Shown here: positions 1,272-61,364 of the stretch, piece by piece | Position numbering within the stretch: the first letter of the stretch is position 1 | Layout: each line of letters begins with the position of its first letter | NCBI GenBank assembly: GCA_003250355.1 | Contig: QKGS01000052.1 | Coordinates: 1,908 to 65,907, forward strand | DNA length: 64,000 nucleotides | Direction of reading: 5' to 3' | DNA from: Bacteroidota bacterium | Lineage (GTDB): Bacteria > Bacteroidota > Bacteroidia > Bacteroidales > SZUA-534 | Notes under the pieces: model-generated | The model's database searches: none | What the model was told of the DNA's origin: nothing | What the model saw: only the letters and a program-made list of their open reading frames with translations | Translations under genes and position numbers: made by a program

Positions 1272-2831
1272 TTAGTAAGGCATCTTATTATTTGTCAAAT
1301 ATGCCACATTACCCACGTTTAAACGTTCGATAATTACCCCGAAGCCTGTTAACCTTTTAATAAAGTTTGATTTGTTCACGGGTTTAAAACCGTCCTCAAT
1401 ACAAAAGGCTCTGTATTCGTTGTATAGTTCTTTTATTAATCGGTAATCGGTGGGGCTGTTTTTGTATTCGTTTTCGTCAACAAACATTTTAACACTATCG
1501 GACTGGTTTTTATATTGCTCAACTGCCTTTTGCACGGCTTCACATTCTGTAAAACGCTTTTGCTTCAATAGTCGGTTAAGCCCCTCTAATACCCAGTTAA
1601 AAACGCCTGAAAGTTCGCTTTCAATTATTTTGGTATGTAGCTGTTTATCCTGTTCATGTGGTGGTATGGTTACATCAAAAGGAACAATTAAAAACCGCCT
1701 GAAATAAGCGTTTGTATGTTCAACATCTTTGGGTAACTCATTACAGTTAAAAATAAGTTTGGCATATTGTTTTATTGTGTACGGTTGACCGTATAAGGCA
1801 CGGGCTTCAATTGGTTCACCCGAAACAATTTGTTTGAAAATTGCACTTTCAAGTTTGCCGTTTATTTCACTTGCATAGTTTACTAATTTGGTAGCTATTT
1901 GCGCCCTATACTCACCCCTTGTATTTGTAAGGTTTTCAAGTGTGAAATGGCTTATATTTTCCATTCCGATTAAAGCGTTTACAACCTCAAAGAATACGCT
2001 TTTACCATTTGCGCCCGTTCCGTACAATATCAGGGCTTTTTCTTCTTTTAGTCGGTTGTTGCCATGTTTGATAAATACAAAGCCTAAATATTCAGCTAAT
2101 ACCTTTTGACGGTCTTTATCGGGTAATACTCTGTTTAAATATTGCTCAAATAGTGGGGCTGTTGCCTGTGGGTTGTATTCAAATGGTAACTGATAAGTAA
2201 TAAAGTCCGTTCGGTTAAATGGTCTTAGTTCTGTTCCCTGTGGCTTTATTTCAAATGTTCCGTTTTGTAGGTTAATAAATACCGTGTCTTTGTCGGTTTC
2301 CGGTGTGGGTAAATATGCCGTTCCTAAAAACTGTTTGTATAATTGTTCCCTGAACTGGTAAAACCTTGCTGAAAACTTAGCAACACCCATTTTTTCGGTG
2401 GCTTCACCTAAGAACTTTTGAAAGGTTTCTTTGTCAATTTCAGCCCAGTAAGTACCGTTATACAAGTAAATAAAATCATGGTTTTTGCATAAGCCCCAAC
2501 GGTTTTTTTCTGCAACCTTTATAACGTTTTCAATTGACAATACTAAATAATGCTTTGTATTGACCTTTATTTTATCCAGTCGCTTTCTTACATCTTTTGC
2601 CTGTTCGCTTTCGGGTTCGATGCTTTCCAGTTGCTTTCTTAATTGTTTAACTTCGGGAAACGCCAACGCTTCAAAGTCCAACGGCTCAAACTGTTTTATG
2701 AGTTTATCCAGTATTTCGGTGTGTGGGGTTGGCTCTTTTTTCTTTGTAAGTTCCTTAACGTGGTTTACAAATGTTTCAGCATTTTCAAGGTCAAGGAATA
2801 CGGGGTTTATCTCTTTATTATTCATTCTCAA
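1272..2831 (-). CDS. P4-family phage/plasmid primase-helicase (D5_N-like region + SF3 NTPase)
   Basis: 519 aa. Walker A in LILYGTGANGKSVFFEVV, followed by FNCNELP and FRRFLIVPF, which is typical of the TIGR01613-type C-terminal domain. Overlaps the upstream ORF by 14 nt. Confidence 0.8.
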   Translation of the reverse strand: MRMNNKEINPVFLDLENAETFVNHVKELTKKKEPTPHTEILDKLIKQFEPLDFEALAFPEVKQLRKQLESIEPESEQAKDVRKRLDKIKVNTKHYLVLSIENVIKVAEKNRWGLCKNHDFIYLYNGTYWAEIDKETFQKFLGEATEKMGVAKFSARFYQFREQLYKQFLGTAYLPTPETDKDTVFINLQNGTFEIKPQGTELRPFNRTDFITYQLPFEYNPQATAPLFEQYLNRVLPDKDRQKVLAEYLGFVFIKHGNNRLKEEKALILYGTGANGKSVFFEVVNALIGMENISHFTLENLTNTRGEYRAQIATKLVNYASEINGKLESAIFKQIVSGEPIEARALYGQPYTIKQYAKLIFNCNELPKDVEHTNAYFRRFLIVPFDVTIPPHEQDKQLHTKIIESELSGVFNWVLEGLNRLLKQKRFTECEAVQKAVEQYKNQSDSVKMFVDENEYKNSPTDYRLIKELYNEYRAFCIEDGFKPVNKSNFIKRLTGFGVIIERLNVGNVAYLTNNKMPY

Positions 2832-3195
2832 ACATCTTTAATTGTGTATCACTTGACTTTTGCTCTTTGGGGTTGGTACTTACAAGGTGTGCAAGGTCGC
2901 CTGTATAAGGGCATCGAAATTCATCTGTTGACGAAACCAATTGCCCCAACTTTTCTAAACGCCTTTTGTATTTTGTTCCGGCTTCAACGGGAACATACAT
3001 TGCCTCACAAACTGCCTTATTTGTTGTGGTTACGTACCATAAAGCTAACTTGTACCGCCTTAACTCTGAATACTCTTTAATAAGCTGTGAAAGTGGTTTG
3101 CCCGTGCCGTTTTCAACCTGTGTTCTTATGAATTGCAGCGTAAAAGCCCTATCTTTGAACTGTCTTTTATGTAAGGGGGTGAATGGGTTACTCAT
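2818..3195 (-). CDS. Small element-encoded hypothetical protein (possible DNA-binding)
   Basis: 125-aa ORF translationally coupled on both sides: an 8-nt overlap with the HTH gene stop (ATGAGTAA) and a 14-nt overlap with the primase-helicase start. Confidence 0.5.
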   Translation of the reverse strand: MSNPFTPLHKRQFKDRAFTLQFIRTQVENGTGKPLSQLIKEYSELRRYKLALWYVTTTNKAVCEAMYVPVEAGTKYKRRLEKLGQLVSSTDEFRCPYTGDLAHLVSTNPKEQKSSDTQLKMFENE

Positions 3196-21096: not shown

Positions 21097-21201
21097 AATA
21101 TATTAACGTTCGATGTAAGGAAATGCTCAATATACTAATATTCTAATCTTTGTAATTATCATTGTTTAGTACAAAGTATCAAGATATGTGTAGTTGTTTT
21201 A

Positions 21202-21229
21202 CTTGATACTTGATACTTGATACTAATAT
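21202..21229 (+). repeat. Heptamer array (CTTGATA)x3 + CTAATAT
   Basis: Read directly from the sequence, in the convergent intergenic region between the sensor and the sigma factor gene. Same CTNGATN family as 50011-50059. Confidence 0.9.
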
Positions 21230-46695: not shown

Positions 46696-47442
46696 CTACC
46701 AATCTTTCTCACTCTTCACATTCCTTGGCTGAGCCTTTTGTTTCTGAACTTTTTCCTGAACATCTTTTTCATCGTTTTGCAATGCTTCAAGTATTCTCAT
46801 AGCATCTTCTTTCGATATTTTTTCAGGATTACCCTGTTGTTCTTGTTCATTTTGCTGTTGCTGTTGCTGTTGCTGGTCTTGATTTTGCTGCTGTTGCTGC
46901 TCATCTTCGTTCTTATCCCGATTTTGGTCTTGTTCTTGTTGGTCTTGCTGTTGCTGTTGCGGTGGCTCCTGATTCTTTTTGTTTTGCGCCCATGCTAAAT
47001 TGTATTTTGTTTCAAAATCGTCAGGATTATTACGCAGAGAGTTTTTATAAGCTTCTATAGCTTCGTCGAGCTTTTGGTTAAACAGATACGAATTGCCCAT
47101 ATTGTGATATGCCTTAGCAAGCTTTTCTTTATCGGATTGATTCATGCCTGTAACTGCCTGATACTGACGGATAGCATCTTCGTATTTTCCCTGCTTATAT
47201 AGGCTGTTGGCAACATTGTAAAGTGCATCCCAGTTGTTAGGGTCTTTTTCCAATGCTTTACGATAGTCAGCCTCGGCCGATTGATACATTGTTGTATCTA
47301 CGGTTACCGAGTCAATAACAGCTTTTTTATAATCGCGGTTTCCCCTGCGAATATGTTTACGTTCGTCTTGTCCGCTCATTTGCACGTAAGTGCCGGCAAG
47401 CAGTAATAGTAGTGTTAGTATTTTTAGTTTGTTCATAATCAT
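46696..47442 (-). CDS. batC: BatC-like TPR protein with Q/D/E-rich tail
   Basis: 248 aa. Signal peptide, TPR repeats (ALYNVANSLYKQGKYEDA; AYHNMGNSYL), then a poly-Q tract. Confidence 0.75.
   Translation of the reverse strand: MIMNKLKILTLLLLLAGTYVQMSGQDERKHIRRGNRDYKKAVIDSVTVDTTMYQSAEADYRKALEKDPNNWDALYNVANSLYKQGKYEDAIRQYQAVTGMNQSDKEKLAKAYHNMGNSYLFNQKLDEAIEAYKNSLRNNPDDFETKYNLAWAQNKKNQEPPQQQQQDQQEQDQNRDKNEDEQQQQQNQDQQQQQQQQNEQEQQGNPEKISKEDAMRILEALQNDEKDVQEKVQKQKAQPRNVKSEKDW
46834..46959 (-). repeat. CAA/CAG-rich low-complexity tract encoding a poly-Q/D/E segment of BatC
   Basis: The plus strand is runs of TTGCTG/CTGTTG. The protein reads QQQQQDQQEQDQNRDKNEDEQQQQQNQDQQQQQQQQNEQEQQ. Confidence 0.9.
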
Positions 47443-47483
47443 ATTATTTATGCCGCTAATTTGCGAATATATTATTCCAGTTT

Positions 47484-47626
47484 GTTGCGATGCATATTAT
47501 CTTTGCACTTCCAATTCTTATGCTCTGCTTGCATCGCTTTTGTTATTGCCACTTTACCGTGGGGTTAGCTTCGCTGAATTTCAATTCACCCACGGCTATT
47601 ATATATCGCCCCGTTGGGGCTTTTTA
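47484..47626 (+). repeat. Copy A of a three-hairpin intergenic element (batC-batB spacer)
   Basis: P1 is GCGATGCA (47487-94) / TGCATCGC (47530-37). P2 is CCGTGGG (47557-63) / CCCACGG (47589-95). P3 is GCCCC-GTT-GGGGC (47608-20) followed by TTTTT. Homologous to 50127-50245. Confidence 0.8.
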
Positions 47627-47792
47627 TCTATTTATCTTTATCCCCTCTCCCTGTGGGTATCTATCCAATGGGAGAATAGCACTATATCAACAGTTATGCT
47701 AAATTGGAGTAAATATCCTTTTTATAAATCAATATAATAATTTTCAAATTCCATCATTCTCAAATTTTCACATTATTCTAATTTTCACATTA

Positions 47793-47827
47793 CTGCCTAC
47801 TGTGAACTGAATACTGCCAACTTCATT
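47793..47827 (-). repeat. Post-stop heptamer module; the minus strand reads GTTGGCA GTATTCA GTTCACA GTAGGCA G
   Basis: Starts 4 nt after the batB stop. About 27/35 identical to 62725-62759, which starts 3 nt after the DUF1641 gene stop. The two share the exact 11-mer ATACTGCCAAC (plus strand; 47811-21 and 62749-59). Confidence 0.8.
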
Positions 47828-48872: not shown

Positions 48873-48887
48873 ATTCTGTTTTATTAA

Positions 48888-48915
48888 GTTGCAAGTTACA
48901 GGTTACAAGTTGCAA
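48888..48915 (+). repeat. Heptamer array GTTGCAA GTTACAG GTTACAA GTTGCAA
   Basis: Read directly from the sequence. Ends 16 nt upstream (in gene sense) of the batB ATG. Same family as the arrays around the four-helix-bundle gene. Confidence 0.9.
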
Positions 48916-48978
48916 GTTTTCGTATTCTGAAAACCTTATTCTTGAACCTAAATCTCACTTATATTATTATCATTTTTC

Positions 48979-49006
48979 GGTCTCCTGTTTCCGTTCTCCA
49001 GTCTCC
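48979..49006 (+). repeat. Heptamer array GGTCTCC TGTTTCC GTTCTCC AGTCTCC
   Basis: Read directly from the sequence, 5 nt from the batA stop. On the mRNA-sense strand it reads GGAGACT GGAGAAC GGAAACA GGAGACC. Same family as 62656-62690. Confidence 0.85.
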
Positions 49007-49010
49007 GGCA

Positions 49011-50006: not shown

Positions 50007-50010
50007 GTTT

Positions 50011-50059
50011 CTTGATGCTAGATACTAGATTCTGGATTCTGGATGCCTGACTCTAGTTG
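50011..50059 (+). repeat. Heptamer array CTTGATG CTAGATA CTAGATT CTGGATT CTGGATG CCTGACT CTAGTTG
   Basis: Read directly from the sequence. Begins 5 nt from the batA ATG. Confidence 0.9.
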
Positions 50060-50126
50060 CTCCGTTTCTTTCCAATTATTTTTAATCTAGTATGTAAATT
50101 ATCATTATATATTTTTCTTTTTCTTA

Positions 50127-50245
50127 GTTGCGATGCATGGTTTCCATTTTTTCAAAATTGACCGAGCTGCTTGCATCGCTTTTTTGCCATCATTCCGTGG
50201 GTTAAAACCCACGGCTATTATAGTGTCGCCCTTACAGGGCTTTTA
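50127..50245 (+). repeat. Copy B of the three-hairpin intergenic element (spacer between the hypothetical gene and batA)
   Basis: P1 is GCGATGCA (50130-37) / TGCATCGC (50172-79). P2 is CCGTGGG (50195-201) / CCCACGG (50208-14). P3 is GCCC-TTACA-GGGC (50228-40) followed by TTTT. Confidence 0.8.
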
Positions 50246-51303: not shown

Positions 51304-52173
51304 TTAGGCTCCCCTGTGTTTAAATAAGTAAATAAGTGGTTTCACATAATCGTCGCCGGTTGCAACTGTGGCATAATCAACACCGCTAAGTTTAAATTTA
51401 TCTTCAAGTTTTTGAGTATGTTCATGCCACCATTCGGCGTAGGCATCACGTACACGCTTACTCGATGTGTCAATCCAGTTGGCCTGCCCCGTTTCTGAAT
51501 CAATCATTTTCACAAGTCCCATTTTTGGTATTGTTGTTTCGCGTTGGTCAAAAACTCTAAGACCTACAATGTCGTGCCTGCGGTTTGCAATAGTTAGTGC
51601 ATTTTTAAAATCGGGCGATATAAAATCGGATATTATAAACCCTATGCTCCGCTTCTTTATGGCATTGGTAAGATACTCTAAAGCAACTGCAATATTAGTC
51701 TCTTTACTTTCCGGTTCAAAATTCAGTAGTTCCTGAATTATGCGAAGAATGTGTTTGCGACCTTTCTGTGGCGGTATAAATTTTTCTACTTTATCGCTAA
51801 AAAGTATTACCCCTATTTTATCGTTATTATTGATAGCCGAGAACGATATTACTGCGGCTATTTCTGTCATTAGTTCCTGCTTGTACTGAACATTTGTTCC
51901 AAAGCTTTTTGAACCGCTAACATCAACAAGCAGCATAACAGTAAGTTCACGCTCTTCTTCAAAAACTTTAACATACGGGTGATTAAAGCGGGCAGTTACG
52001 TTCCAGTCTACATCGCGTATTGCGTCGCCGTACTGGTACTCTCGTACCTCGCTGAAGGTCATCCCTTTTCCTTTAAAAGCACTATGGTATTCGCCCGAAA
52101 ATATCTGGTTCGATATTCCGCGGGTTTTTATCTCTATATGCCTTACTTTTTTTAACAGATCTGTTGTATCCAT
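51304..52173 (-). CDS. DUF58-family protein (MoxR partner)
   Basis: I chose the start at ATG 52173-52171 (MDTTDLL...); the track's 52188 start is a TTG codon. GEYHSAFKGKGMTFSEVREYQYGDAIRDVDWNVTAR is the DUF58 hallmark. Confidence 0.85.
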   Translation of the reverse strand: MDTTDLLKKVRHIEIKTRGISNQIFSGEYHSAFKGKGMTFSEVREYQYGDAIRDVDWNVTARFNHPYVKVFEEERELTVMLLVDVSGSKSFGTNVQYKQELMTEIAAVISFSAINNNDKIGVILFSDKVEKFIPPQKGRKHILRIIQELLNFEPESKETNIAVALEYLTNAIKKRSIGFIISDFISPDFKNALTIANRRHDIVGLRVFDQRETTIPKMGLVKMIDSETGQANWIDTSSKRVRDAYAEWWHEHTQKLEDKFKLSGVDYATVATGDDYVKPLIYLFKHRGA

Positions 52174-52181
52174 GTCTCCAT

Positions 52182-52260
52182 GTTGCAAGTTGCAGGTTAC
52201 AAGTTACAAGTTACAGGTTGCGAGTTGCGAGTTGCGAGTTGCAGGTTACAGGTTACAGGT
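52182..52260 (+). repeat. 11-unit heptamer array (GTTRCRR)n
   Basis: GTTGCAA GTTGCAG GTTACAA GTTACAA GTTACAG GTTGCGA GTTGCGA GTTGCGA GTTGCAG GTTACAG GTTACAG GT. Lies between the four-helix-bundle gene stop and the DUF58 gene start. Confidence 0.95.
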
Positions 52261-52301
52261 TTTTAATACACTCAATCTTTAACCTATCTGCAATTAACAT
52301 C

Positions 52302-52673
52302 TTACTTATCGTCTCTCCAACTTTCCTCTACATACTGTAGGAACTTGTATAACATCCTGCTTAATTTATCATACTCTTCCATTAACTGAGTTAATGGGGT
52401 ATCCTCAAAATGTAATTCACTAATCATTTCAAGCTGCGACATAGCTTCATCGCATGATGCATGAGCGTAAACCAAAAACTTTACAAACTCATTTTTATAT
52501 CTCTTTCTTCCGTAACCTTCAACAATATTATCTTTTATACTTTTTGTCGAACGTCTTATCTGACTTCCTAGTTCGTATAACTCATATTTAGGTAGTTGCA
52601 TAGTCATTTTATGCACATCAATAGCTAACCTGTAAGCCAACTTATATACATCTAAATCTCTATAACTCTTCAT
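52302..52673 (-). CDS. Four-helix-bundle protein (23S rRNA intervening-sequence protein family, PF05635/TIGR02436-like)
   Basis: 123 aa. SYRDLDVYKLAYRLAIDVHKMT...LGSQIRRSTKSIKDNIVEGYGRKRYKNEFVKFLVYAHASCDE matches the family consensus pattern. Confidence 0.85.
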   Translation of the reverse strand: MKSYRDLDVYKLAYRLAIDVHKMTMQLPKYELYELGSQIRRSTKSIKDNIVEGYGRKRYKNEFVKFLVYAHASCDEAMSQLEMISELHFEDTPLTQLMEEYDKLSRMLYKFLQYVEESWRDDK

Positions 52674-52698
52674 TTTATATTTTATGTGAGCAAATAAT

Positions 52699-52730
52699 AA
52701 CTTGTAACATGCAACTTGTAACCTGTAACT
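52699..52730 (-). repeat. Inverted copy of the GTTRCRR heptamer array; the minus strand reads A GTTACAG GTTACAA GTTGCAT GTTACAA GTT
   Basis: Read directly from the sequence. Starts 2 nt after the moxR stop and lies upstream of the four-helix-bundle gene. Inverted relative to 52182-52260. Confidence 0.9.
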
Positions 52731-52732
52731 AG

Positions 52733-53728
52733 TTAAGGAACTTCCACTGTATTCAGTATCTCACTTATAATACCTTCAGAAGTAATATTTTCAGCTTCGG
52801 CCTGGTAAGTTAACCCAATACGGTGGCGTAATACATCGTAACATACAGCACGTACATCTTCAGGAATTACATATCCGCGGCGTTTTATAAAAGCATATGC
52901 TTTAGCTGCTTTTGAAAGGTTAATGCTGGCACGCGGCGAACCTCCAAAGCTTATCATGTCTTTAAGTTTTTCCAAACCATAATTGTCGGGATAACGAGTA
53001 GCAAATACTATGTCAACAATGTATTTCTCTATTTTCTCGTCCATATAAACCTCTTTTACTACGTCGCGGGCTTTAATAATATCGTCTTTTGTAAGTACTT
53101 TATTTGCGGTAGGGAATTCTTTTGCAATATTTTGACGAACAATTAACTGCTCCTCTTCTTTTTTCGGATAGTTAATGATTGTTTTCAGCATAAAACGGTC
53201 AACCTGTGCTTCGGGAAGCGGGTATGTACCTTCTTGCTCAATAGGGTTTTGAGTTGCAAGAACAAGGAACGGTTTTTCAAGCTTAAATGTTTCATCGCCT
53301 ATAGTTACCTGCTTTTCCTGCATAGCTTCGAGCAATGCACTCTGTACTTTTGCCGGTGCACGGTTTATTTCATCGGCCAACACAAAGTTTGAAAAAATAG
53401 GACCTTTCTTAACGTTGAATTCCTCGTTTTTCTGGCTGTAAATCATAGTACCCAATACATCGGCAGGAAGTAAGTCGGGGGTAAACTGAATACGGCTAAA
53501 ATCGGCATCGATAGTAGTTGCCAATGTGTTTATTGCCAGTGTTTTTGCCAATCCGGGAAGCCCCTCAAGAAGCACGTGCCCGTCTGACAATAACCCAATT
53601 AATAAACTTTCAACCAACGACTTTTGGCCTACTATTACTTTGTTCATTTCTATGTTAATCATATCTACAAATGAACTTTCACGCTGTATTTTTTCGTTCA
53701 ATTCTTTTATGTCAACTGTCTGACTCAT
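52733..53728 (-). CDS. moxR: MoxR-family AAA+ ATPase
   Basis: 331 aa. Walker A LLEGLPGLAKT, Walker B FVLADEINRA. Confidence 0.95.
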   Translation of the reverse strand: MSQTVDIKELNEKIQRESSFVDMINIEMNKVIVGQKSLVESLLIGLLSDGHVLLEGLPGLAKTLAINTLATTIDADFSRIQFTPDLLPADVLGTMIYSQKNEEFNVKKGPIFSNFVLADEINRAPAKVQSALLEAMQEKQVTIGDETFKLEKPFLVLATQNPIEQEGTYPLPEAQVDRFMLKTIINYPKKEEEQLIVRQNIAKEFPTANKVLTKDDIIKARDVVKEVYMDEKIEKYIVDIVFATRYPDNYGLEKLKDMISFGGSPRASINLSKAAKAYAFIKRRGYVIPEDVRAVCYDVLRHRIGLTYQAEAENITSEGIISEILNTVEVP

Positions 53729-59462: not shown

Positions 59463-61364
59463 ATGAATAAAATCCACTATTTGCAAAAAATAAAAGCTAT
59501 ACTTTTGCTTTTTATTTTAAATTTCCCAATTATTTTATCGGCACAATCTACTGAACTTTTCAGTAGTGAAGTAACAGGTGCCACAAATTTTTCAGACAAT
59601 AGTGAAACATATAACTTAAGTTCAAACCTGAGTATTGAATTTGGAAGCGGTTATGGTCATACCGGTGATGACAGATTTATAGGTACAGGAGCGAACCCTC
59701 CCGGAGGGCCTGGTGTTATTGGATCTATTACAAATAATTCAAATAATTTTTATGTTCACAGCCTTTGGATATACCCCTCATCTGATGGTGGAAATAACCC
59801 TACCAATAATGGCACGGTTATATTCAAAGGAAAACTAAACGGCTCTACCGTTTTTACACAAACTGTTAGCAGTGGTTTTAGTACAAACTATGCTGATGCT
59901 GATTACGGATTCTCCAAAGTAAGTTTTACTAGCTATAACACAATAGCTATTGATGAACTAGAAGTTGAAATAACAGGCAGTTTCAATTACCTTGCCATTG
60001 ATGATTTTGAGCATGAAAGAGCTATTTCCTGCATCAATCCTCAAATACCTACTGTTACAGTATCACCAACTTCAGTTTGTAATGGAAGTAGTACTACTTT
60101 ATATATTTCAGGAAACTTGAACGATGCCACTAACTGGCATATTTATACAGGGTCGTGTGGAGGAACTCTAATTGGTACTACTTCTACCGGCTCATTTTCT
60201 GTAACACCTTCATCGCCTTCAACTACTTACTTTGTAAGAGGTGAGGGTGGATGCGTTACTCCCGGTAGTTGTGGATCTGTTACTGTTATGGTAAACGCTA
60301 ACACTACCATTGATGTTCAACCAACTACTACAACTAATATGTGCCAGAGAGATCCTTCAATAGAATTATCTGTTTCAGCTTCGGGGTCAGGTACATTATC
60401 TTATCAATGGTATAATCTAACAGGTGCAATTTCAGGTGCTCAGTCGTCAACTTTACAAATTGCAACTCAGACCGGCAATTCTAATACTTATTACTGTAAA
60501 GTAACAGCTACTTGCGGATCTGCTACAAGTAACAATGCTGTAGTAAATATAAATCCATCGTATAATCAAACCAAATACGTTTCTGTTTGCTCGGGTGAAA
60601 GCTTTACATTCCCTGACGGTACTACTCAAAACAATATTACAAGTCAGGTTATATATACAAGCAACCTTTCTACTGTTAACACCTCATGCGACAGTATTAT
60701 TACTACTACCGTAAATGTTAATCCGGTTTATAATTTGAACGAATCCGTTTCTGTTTGCTCGGGTGAAAGCTTTACATTCCCTGACGGTACTACTCAAAAC
60801 AATATTACAAGTCAGGTTATATATACAAGCAACCTTTCTACTGTTAACACCTCATGCGACAGTATTATTACTACTACGGTTAACATAACTGAAGTTAATA
60901 TTCAAACCTCATCAACAAATGCTTCCATTATAGCTGAAGCTAACAATGCAATATACCAATGGATAGACTGCAATAACTCAAACCAACCTATTCAAAATGA
61001 AAAAGAGAAAGAATTTTTCCCCTCGCAAAATGGTTCCTATGCAGTAGAAATAACAATTGATGGATGTAAAGAAATATCAAGCTGTGAAACATTCACAACT
61101 GTAGATGCCAAATATTCAATCAAAAAAACAAACCCAATTATATATCCTAACCCTACTACAGATATTGTAACCATTAAGTTCAATTCCTCAAATGATACTA
61201 TATTTATCAAATTATATAACGAAGCAGGGAATTTAATAAGTAATATGAAAACAGAAAAAGCAGAATCAGTAGATATAGCCATTGAAGGTGTTGAGGGATT
61301 ATACTTTATTGAAATTTCAGACAAATATGGTAATACCAATACATATCAAATAATCAAGAAATAG
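59463..61364 (+). CDS. Secreted repeat protein with T9SS C-terminal sorting domain
   Basis: 633 aa. Signal peptide and Cys-containing Ig-like repeats. The C-terminus IYPNPTTDIVTIKF...GLYFIEISDKYGNTNTYQIIKK is typical of the Por/T9SS CTD. Confidence 0.8.
   Translation: MNKIHYLQKIKAILLLFILNFPIILSAQSTELFSSEVTGATNFSDNSETYNLSSNLSIEFGSGYGHTGDDRFIGTGANPPGGPGVIGSITNNSNNFYVHSLWIYPSSDGGNNPTNNGTVIFKGKLNGSTVFTQTVSSGFSTNYADADYGFSKVSFTSYNTIAIDELEVEITGSFNYLAIDDFEHERAISCINPQIPTVTVSPTSVCNGSSTTLYISGNLNDATNWHIYTGSCGGTLIGTTSTGSFSVTPSSPSTTYFVRGEGGCVTPGSCGSVTVMVNANTTIDVQPTTTTNMCQRDPSIELSVSASGSGTLSYQWYNLTGAISGAQSSTLQIATQTGNSNTYYCKVTATCGSATSNNAVVNINPSYNQTKYVSVCSGESFTFPDGTTQNNITSQVIYTSNLSTVNTSCDSIITTTVNVNPVYNLNESVSVCSGESFTFPDGTTQNNITSQVIYTSNLSTVNTSCDSIITTTVNITEVNIQTSSTNASIIAEANNAIYQWIDCNNSNQPIQNEKEKEFFPSQNGSYAVEITIDGCKEISSCETFTTVDAKYSIKKTNPIIYPNPTTDIVTIKFNSSNDTIFIKLYNEAGNLISNMKTEKAESVDIAIEGVEGLYFIEISDKYGNTNTYQIIKK
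60578..60877 (+). repeat. 168-bp in-frame tandem duplication with a 132-bp perfectly identical core
   Basis: 60578-60709 is identical to 60746-60877. It encodes VSVCSGESFTFPDGTTQNNITSQVIYTSNLSTVNTSCDSIITTTV twice. Confidence 0.9.

Follow-up and report, generated by a model that had tools for sequence, protein, structure and literature searches.

A four-helix-bundle gene between inverted heptamer arrays in a Bacteroidota moxR-DUF58 operon, a proposed cassette resembling the intervening sequences of 23S rRNA

Four-helix-bundle (4HB) proteins of the PF05635/TIGR02436 family have, to our knowledge, no known function outside diversity-generating retroelements (DGRs), and their genes are scattered without explanation through housekeeping, polysaccharide, restriction-modification and CRISPR (clustered regularly interspaced short palindromic repeats) operons. 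In a 64,000-nucleotide stretch of a Bacteroidota genome (contig QKGS01000052.1, positions 1,908 to 65,907; the whole stretch is hereafter called the window), one such gene lies between moxR and a DUF58 gene and is bracketed by two inverted arrays of 7-nt repeats, here called the arms of a cassette. The closest described system is the intervening sequence (IVS) in the 23S rRNA of Coxiella burnetii. Its terminal inverted repeats fold into a stem of 28 bp, two to three tandem GACAGAT heptamers, in a copy number that varies among strains, precede the ATG of the S23p open reading frame (ORF), and RNase III cleavage was mapped at the first repeat (PMC4990558). In the pentamer of the DGR protein Avd, five of five protomers contact an RNA stem-loop beside avd, and the same residues are used on successive flipped-out bases (bioRxiv 10.1101/2023.10.23.563531). 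Intergenic heptamer arrays with no known partner have been reported before start codons (PMC4679880; bioRxiv 10.1101/2022.06.06.494920, Nostoc).

By analogy with these systems, we propose with moderate confidence that the window carries an IVS-like cassette in an mRNA operon, and that its arms are the probable RNA partner of the encoded protein, a putative pentamer. As in the S23p IVSs of C. burnetii and Leptospira (PMC4990558), the ORF for a protein of the same family would lie in the loop of a predicted inverted-repeat stem of about 28 bp, the 5' arm before this ORF holds tandem heptamers whose copy number varies, the element is embedded in its host transcript and probably transcribed with it, and the distribution is sporadic with signs of horizontal transfer. 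The arms in the window differ in consisting wholly of repeat arrays (4.5 and 11 units), and RNase III cleavage, mapped in Coxiella, is a possible step in the window cassette. Its host is the moxR-DUF58 mRNA operon and not rRNA helix 9, 25 or 45. Thus, the cassette is not a member of the rRNA IVS class, though it would work like an IVS; it is a related variant that stands outside that class by location. An earlier reading of the window's letters (the original prediction) held that a repeat-bounded 4HB unit would be new biology. This claim must be softened, since heptamers and an inverted-repeat stem around the S23p ORF had already been described for the Coxiella IVS; in the literature searched, we found no description of array-flanked 4HB genes outside that IVS.

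Avd shares with the cassette protein a homologous 4HB fold, and its RNA ligand is encoded next to its own gene. Unlike avd, the cassette has no reverse transcriptase (RT) nearby, its protein fails the Avd equivalog model, and its candidate RNA ligand is a periodic array or long stem rather than an 11-bp stem-loop. The TAACTGA and Nostoc arrays resemble the arms in being intergenic tandem 7-nt units, in an AAC-containing sense, that end a few nt before an ATG and change copy number in 7-nt steps. As in the TAACTGA type, the 3' arm and two further arrays of the window, ahead of batB and batA, end 8, 13 and 3 nt before an ATG, respectively. The units are different (CTGTAAC/CTTGCAA and ATCYAGN, not TAACTGA), and those reports describe single arrays with no link to a gene family, whereas the cassette has inverted pairs around a 4HB gene.

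RAYTs are HUH/Y1 transposases, and REPs are palindromic hairpins. Like the REPIN-RAYT system, the cassette consists of a single gene between inverted short repeats, its repeat also occurs solo in spacers, and it resides vertically for long periods; unlike that system, the 4HB protein has no catalytic motif and the repeats are tandem heptamer arrays rather than palindromic hairpins. TRAP reads eleven GAG/UAG repeats, and HutP reads UAG-N4 repeats at 7-nt spacing. The likeness here would be a homo-oligomeric ring whose ligand, in the regulated gene's leader, repeats an invariant core of 3 nt at a constant interval. TRAP and HutP have folds unrelated to that of the 4HB protein, whose binding to the arms is putative.

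The cassette and its protein

The 4HB gene (52,302-52,673; 123 aa, S23p/23S-IVS protein/TIGR02436 family) is located on the minus strand between moxR (52,733-53,728; AAA_3 ATPase, Pfam AAA_3 E 9e-67 and AAA_lid_2), the upstream gene, and the DUF58/vWA gene (51,304-52,173; DUF58 E 1e-79), the downstream one. All three genes share this strand in a Bat-type operon, and the segment between moxR and DUF58 is 549 bp long. Its 5' arm, AGTTACAGGTTACAAGTTGCATGTTACAAGTT, occupies 52,699-52,730 and begins 2 nt past the moxR stop codon (52,733-52,735); it contains about 4.5 heptamers (GTTACAG, GTTACAA, GTTGCAT, GTTACAA and a final GTT). An A/T-rich leader of 25 nt (52,674-52,698) connects this arm with the 4HB start codon. 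The 3' arm (52,182-52,261) contains 11 heptamers, which read (N4-AAC)n in the mRNA sense. On the plus strand these are eleven exact GTTRCRR units (52,182-52,258) ending 8 nt from the DUF58 ATG at 52,173; this start, MDTTDLLKK, agrees with the corresponding genes of two other loci (L003 and L081). Both arms were delimited by sequence, pattern matching and Tandem Repeats Finder (TRF). The window contains 18 occurrences of the double-unit GTTRCRR pattern where 0.8 would be expected, a count that none of 100 shuffles reached.

The original prediction had placed the 4HB gene in operon orientation between moxR and DUF58 with an array at either end, and the sequence, Pfam and TRF bear out all of this anatomy. 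It had also described the arms as imperfect inverted repeats, which they are, with a match of 22/24 at the outer ends; our recount gave 21/24 over the outer 24 nt and 28/32 over the whole 32-nt short arm. An Rfam search of 48-54 kb at E values up to 1 returned only an unrelated Acido-Lenti-1 match, with no known RNA family for the arms and no rRNA match. Sigma-70-like sites that could serve as an own promoter occurred only at chance level in a scan ill-suited to Bacteroidota promoters, and a scan for an intrinsic terminator of the 4HB segment found none.

The window protein matched PF05635 (23S_rRNA_IVP; E 2e-28, 99.1 bits, cut-off 33.8) and TIGR02436 ('four helix bundle protein'; 106.6 bits, cut-off 24). 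The AlphaFold monomer model has four helices with a predicted local distance difference test score (pLDDT) of 94. Foldseek aligned the model with Xcc0516 (2gsc; template modelling (TM) scores 0.82/0.89), BT_0352 (2rld; 0.75/0.82) and Avd (4dwl and 8ub7; 0.65-0.8), and phmmer matched the protein to 2gsc with an E value of 4e-7. The helix-2 motif Q..R...S...N..EG..R is present, and Q38, R41, S45, N49, E52, G53 and R56 are invariant across the three subfamilies described below. The ratio of nonsynonymous to synonymous substitution (dN/dS) between 4HB homologues at matching junctions in other genomes is 0.02-0.09, indicating that the protein is under strong purifying selection and functional. The family is very large, as one phmmer query reached 9,291 clusters at 50% identity. 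PADLOC gave no match for representatives of the three 4HB subfamilies, and we rejected membership in a defence system.

Recurrence, repeat cores and exchange of the module

A scan of one genome per species yielded 80 loci, from Prolixibacteraceae, Salinivirgaceae, Ekhidna, Flavobacteriaceae, Balneolaceae and others, whose proteins are 55-72% identical to that of the window; all 80 were found in housekeeping operons. Arrays were scored as at least three in-phase units at period 7, with GTT up to 250 nt upstream or AAC up to 300 nt downstream of the gene. GTT-N4 arrays were present upstream in 65 of the 80 loci and N4-AAC arrays downstream in 56, with both in 49. The reverse polarity was seen in just 14 and 11 of the 80 loci, and the rate in 1128 random control windows of the same loci was 0.8-0.9%. 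Both neighbours share the strand of the 4HB gene in 63 of 69 loci. The first unit begins 5 nt past the stop codon of the preceding gene, the last upstream unit lies 36 nt from the 4HB ATG, and the last downstream unit ends 9 nt before the next ATG (medians of the homologous loci). By TRF, period-7 arrays occur in 77% of the spacers adjoining 4HB genes, compared with 19% of other same-strand spacers in the same loci and 4% in independent loci.

The placement at moxR-DUF58 is identical, with arms, in a Salinivirgaceae metagenome-assembled genome (MAG; L003). An alignment-based scan of IMG/VR added 24 4HB loci of 38-68% GC, nearly all with an upstream arm and its downstream complement; a scan with one divergent protein returned a single locus. 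The arms range from 3 to more than 20 units and are variable in sequence and length. Thus, an array-flanked 4HB module recurs with fixed polarity between same-strand genes in many lineages, and inverted short-repeat arrays flank other 4HB genes almost as a rule, as the original prediction would have it.

Comparison of these loci indicates that the repeat core tracks the subfamily of the 4HB protein and not the host. In subfamily 1, to which the window protein belongs, the unit carries GTT in 53 of 63 period-7 arrays upstream of the gene and in 52 of 53 downstream of it. Within these arrays, G1, T2 and T3 are the majority base in 98-100% of units, positions 4, 6 and 7 in 79-88%, and a pyrimidine stands at position 5. 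Of 48 other period-7 arrays in these loci, only 18 contain GTT/AAC, compared with an expected 26%. Subfamily 2, which is 31-35% identical to the window protein and carries an NIAEG motif, has GTGA-N3 upstream and N3-TCAC downstream; its hosts are Marinilabiliales MAGs, Flavobacterium terrigena, Xanthomarina, an Eremiobacterota-labelled MAG, a 7.7-Mb genome and a high-GC IMG/VR contig. Subfamily 3 has an ANIEEGYGRG motif and GGGACGA/TCGTCCC arms, and two of its lineages are located at moxR-DUF58. Further units in IMG/VR loci are GGCnnTC, GAAGGCA, ATAGGGT, CAACGTT, AGTAGGG, CAGTTGC and CTGTTCG. Single genomes (L014, and likewise L024) and one genus (Xanthomarina, L079 and L168) can hold two cassette types whose cores differ.

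For 122 locus pairs in which both neighbouring genes are shared, we compared the cassette with its flanks. Mean nucleotide identity was 0.79 for the ORF and 0.75 and 0.76 for the flanks; since the ORF diverges like the flanks, the cassette is mostly inherited vertically. In several pairs, similarity of the ORF greatly exceeds that of the flanks (L035/L041, 0.97 against 0.80 and 0.77; L073/L079, 0.91 against 0.66 and 0.80; also L019/L021 and L050/L058). Four Xanthomarina-like loci (within L168-L173) share a block of about 560 bp, including arms and ORF, that is approximately 100% identical, whereas wzm and wzt on either side are only 61-89% identical. This block runs from about 10 nt before the wzm stop to about 55 nt into wzt (about 1432-1995 of L168), suggesting exchange by homologous recombination. 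At the wzm-wzt junction we found subfamily 1 (L056, L064, L069 and L073) and subfamily 2 (L166 and L168), and at moxR-DUF58 subfamily 1 (the window and L003) and subfamily 3 (L105, L174 and L183), so that insertion or replacement recurs. From these sequence comparisons, the 4HB cassette is mostly vertical and occasionally exchanged or newly inserted.

We also surveyed 80 metagenomic moxR relatives (74-88% identity), of which 77 have a recognisable downstream DUF58 gene. The spacer between the two genes is at most 20 nt long in 26 cases, 21-39 nt in 9 and 40-1149 nt in 42. Insert-free junctions thus exist, and the claim of the original prediction that moxR and DUF58 are normally adjacent is true only in part. 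Many of the longer spacers without a 4HB gene are short-repeat arrays, often inverted (L082, L104, L112, L118/L135, L148, L154, L155 and L160), and 15 of 36 such spacers fold with z < −2. One junction carries a frameshifted subfamily-3 gene with its arms (L105). In another (L093), the ORF-less spacer matches the inner part of the 5' arm and the leader in the subfamily-3 cassette of L174, with an alignment score of 36 compared with a shuffle maximum of 27. These two loci suggest that at least some ORF-less spacers are cassette remnants.

Pairing of the arms and readings of the cassette

In the minimum-free-energy fold of a 611-nt transcript segment, positions 52,730-52,703 of the 5' arm pair with 52,188-52,215 of the 3' arm at 26 of 28 positions, with two 1x1 mismatches (z −3.3). 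The predicted arm duplex has an energy of −37.4 kcal/mol, and the hairpin −39.8 kcal/mol. The predicted stem has its foot 2 nt from the moxR stop and spans −15 to −42 of DUF58. This prediction agrees with the RNA stem looping out the ORF that the original prediction had envisaged, and fits the architecture of the S23p IVS (PMC4990558). Over 78 loci, own arms paired better than reversed or shuffled controls of matched composition (median −42.9 against −32.8 and −30.8; Wilcoxon p about 1e-11). Long-range duplexfold energies are inflated by promiscuous G/U-C/A pairing, and we therefore relied on paired comparisons and on the fold of the short arm. Locus-specific complementarity of the arms was considered and rejected, as the own partner ranks only about 20th-25th of 77.

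We propose the following mechanism. The cassette consists of a 4HB gene, probably promoter-less, and two arms of approximately 7-nt units, with the G-containing arm directly after the stop codon of the upstream gene, and it would be transcribed within the Bat operon. The arms would pair in the transcript into a stem of about 28 bp and loop out the ORF, as in the S23p-carrying 23S rRNA IVS that is cut by RNase III. The periodic conserved core is a candidate binding site of the encoded putative pentamer, by analogy with Avd. A stem alone would not fix GTT while the other positions change, and for this reason we suppose that the core is read by the pentamer. The ligand form would most likely be single-stranded RNA, because 7-nt spacing suits a ring and not one face of a duplex. 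The balance between binding and pairing, possibly with RNase III cleavage, may decide what becomes of the operon mRNA at this junction and how accessible the start region of DUF58 is. A core that follows the subfamily provides a specific candidate ligand for a large family of unassigned role.

A broader proposal can be offered only tentatively. PF05635 proteins may be sequence-specific pentameric readers of periodic repeats, each subfamily co-evolving with its own core (GUU-N4, GUGA-N3, GGGACGA and others). On this view, gene and arms would together make up a ribonucleoprotein cassette complete in itself. It would represent a novel class of selfish or domesticated elements that colonises operon spacers, rRNA helices (the classical IVS) and even ORFs, and these proteins would also be the partner of the intergenic heptamer arrays of Bacteroidota, Cyanobacteria and Beggiatoaceae. 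If so, the 30-year-old puzzle of the S23p rRNA IVS would become a special case of a general cassette, and the unexplained intergenic arrays would gain 4HB proteins as a candidate binding partner.

Several results weigh against the IVS-like reading. The advantage of own arms as pairing partners, over controls or over the arms of other loci, is only modest. The 3' arm is absent in L004, L013 and L025, and AAC-type arrays lie on both sides in L006 and L017, so that the stem is not obligatory. An Ignavibacteria-like subfamily-3 lineage (L181 and L182) has GTGAAA hexamers, which breaks a strict rule of one core for one subfamily, and its relative L186 has composite GGGACGAGTGAAA units, which soften it; we rejected such a rule. 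In two IMG/VR contigs, a long host ORF on the same strand stays open in another frame through the whole cassette. In L210 the host ORF (6-2486) has an Eco57I methylase Pfam domain and the 4HB gene is at 1459-1860, and in L161 the host ORF (103-1617) has no Pfam match, with flanks resembling L210, and the 4HB gene is at 656-1021. The nested arms preserve the host frame and translate as ..FSEQWVVISGQ.. and ..HYSLTTNHYS... Excision would destroy these host mRNAs, and obligatory excision is therefore hard to reconcile with them. The Coxiella S23p ORF is apparently unexpressed, untranslated and decaying (PMC4990558), unlike the 4HB ORF, which is under strong purifying selection.

The arrays could instead be generic spacer repeats, the product of replication slippage or a translation-leader device, with the 4HB gene placed in spacers tolerant of such sequence and no functional link between it and the arms; we regard this as unlikely. 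Some of the findings behind it also count against the IVS-like reading. Across the 1.1 Mb of fetched loci, 205 of about 372 tandem arrays have period 7, which is thus the dominant one, and the operon of the window itself has unrelated-unit arrays before batA, after batA and before batB, with no 4HB gene. Arrays without a 4HB gene were found in 35% of the moxR-DUF58 spacers of 40-400 nt, and ORF-less spacers keep the polarity, being G-rich by the stop in 11 against 2 cases and C-rich by the start in 12 against 5. In L006 and L017 the AAC-type array precedes the 4HB gene itself, and in Beggiatoaceae, Cyanobacteria and Bacteroidetes the published TAACTGA arrays stop 1 to a few nt ahead of start codons (PMC4679880). 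As arrays occur at other junctions without a 4HB gene, they are not exclusively cassette ends, and the pattern is partly general to operon spacers. Generic repeats do not account for arrays that are 4- to 18-fold commoner beside 4HB genes than in other same-strand spacers of the same or related loci, nor for a core that follows the protein subfamily across phyla, with two cores in one genome. GTT is invariant while the other unit positions drift, even where synonymous divergence (dS) is saturated, and among the ORF-less or broken junctions the L093 spacer looks like a remnant of a subfamily-3 cassette and L105 like a frameshifted intermediate.

It is less probable still that the cassette moves as DNA. 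The arms would in that case be the terminal inverted repeats of a transposon, non-autonomous or novel, and a transposase in trans or the 4HB protein would recognise them. The inverted arms at the extreme ends of the insert, the different subfamilies at shared junctions (moxR-DUF58 and wzm-wzt) and the identical cassette within diverged flanks could all be taken in this way, and Ralph and McClelland, as quoted in PMC4990558, proposed that the IVS ORF is a mobility factor. In agreement with the original prediction, no transposase, integrase or RT came up in a Pfam scan that covered the neighbouring ORFs (150 aa or longer) between about 15 kb downstream and 11 kb upstream of the cassette. The sole ORF in the element is the 4HB gene, and its product folds as a small bundle of helices that carries no known motif of a nuclease or recombinase. 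There is no target-site duplication, as the bases outside the arms, ...TTAACT and ATGGAGAC..., form no direct repeat. The arms are variable-number arrays without conserved termini, and at a 7-bp period one site and the next would face different sides of a DNA duplex. In the 122 pairs the cassette and its flanks diverge alike, and the Xanthomarina block reaches into both flanking genes, as in homologous recombination. The terminal inverted repeats at the DNA level suggested by the original prediction thus find no support; of its "cassette or miniature mobile unit", the discrete cassette stands, given the subfamily swaps and the Xanthomarina block, and the miniature transposon does not. Least probable by far is a stranded or distant Avd of a DGR. 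The shared fold (Foldseek matches to 4dwl and 8ub7, above) is what speaks for it. The scanned neighbouring ORFs include no RT, the Avd equivalog model NF033474 leaves the window protein unmatched and gives another 4HB protein (P0121) only 23.6 bits against a cut-off of 80, and the homologous loci lie in housekeeping operons in 80 of 80 cases. With neither an RT nor a match to the Avd model, the DGR context is effectively refuted. No pair of template and variable repeats was noticed in general scans including TRF, none of which was a dedicated search for one.

Other inserts and repeats at the junction and in the window

The arms also have consequences for annotation, as gene callers join 4HB ORFs to their neighbours and assemblies break at the repeat arms. 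Some arms lack a stop codon, and for this reason the called ORF can be fused or run through the 3' arm. Public calls fuse the 4HB ORF with a hexapeptide transferase or DegT (P0124 and P0128), and the C-terminus of P0121 is a call extended through the 3' arm.

The moxR-DUF58 junction gathers varied inserts. The closest moxR relative (L081, 88% identity) has a spacer of 1149 nt (1911-3059) with several array types, CTGAGCTTGTCGAAG-like repeats and an unrelated 82-aa ORF. In L100, L102, L103 and L121, the spacer holds a small unrelated ORF whose N-terminus resembles a signal peptide.

Downstream of DUF58, the operon of the window continues with a 342-aa ORF, batA, batB, a TPR gene, batD and a TPR/SH3 gene, and 7-nt repeats make up nearly every spacer. 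On the minus strand, TRF and the sequence revealed an ATCYAGN array of five units (50,009-50,044), unrelated to the unit of the arms, 3 nt before the batA ATG, and four GGAGACN units (48,981-49,007) just past the batA stop; the latter are not complementary to the array next to batB. This batB array (48,886-48,918, minus strand) is a solo array of about five AACYTGY units, the same unit type as the cassette arms. It ends 13 nt before the batB ATG, has no 4HB gene, and is identical at 29 of 31 positions to the start-proximal end of the cassette 3' arm. We considered the batA-batB spacer as a decayed copy of the cassette and rejected this, since its interior aligned with a score of 19, compared with a shuffle mean of 19.6, and only the arrays match. 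A weak AGTnnnC array of five units lies past the batB stop (about 47,788-47,822).

An element of about 140-160 nt is present in two copies on the minus strand, before batA (50,107-50,244) and after batB (47,467-47,624), which share 111 of 128 aligned bases. It contains three hairpins, GCCC..GGGC, CCGTGGG..CCCACGG and GCGATGCA..TGCATCGC. The Acido-Lenti-1 match in Rfam (38.1 bits, gathering score 37) is located at 50,195-50,241 on the strand opposite to this element. The TPR (BatC-like) protein has a Q/E/D-rich low-complexity stretch encoded by CTG/TTG-rich triplets at 46,834-46,968. Elsewhere in the window, a 633-aa Por_Secre_tail ORF (59,463-61,364) contains a 168-nt tandem repeat of 1.8 copies with 99% identity (60,574-60,877). 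Between two convergent genes at 21,170-21,224, a TACTTGA array of 3.6 units pairs with the preceding AAGTATCAAG, forming a short-repeat hairpin at the gene ends.

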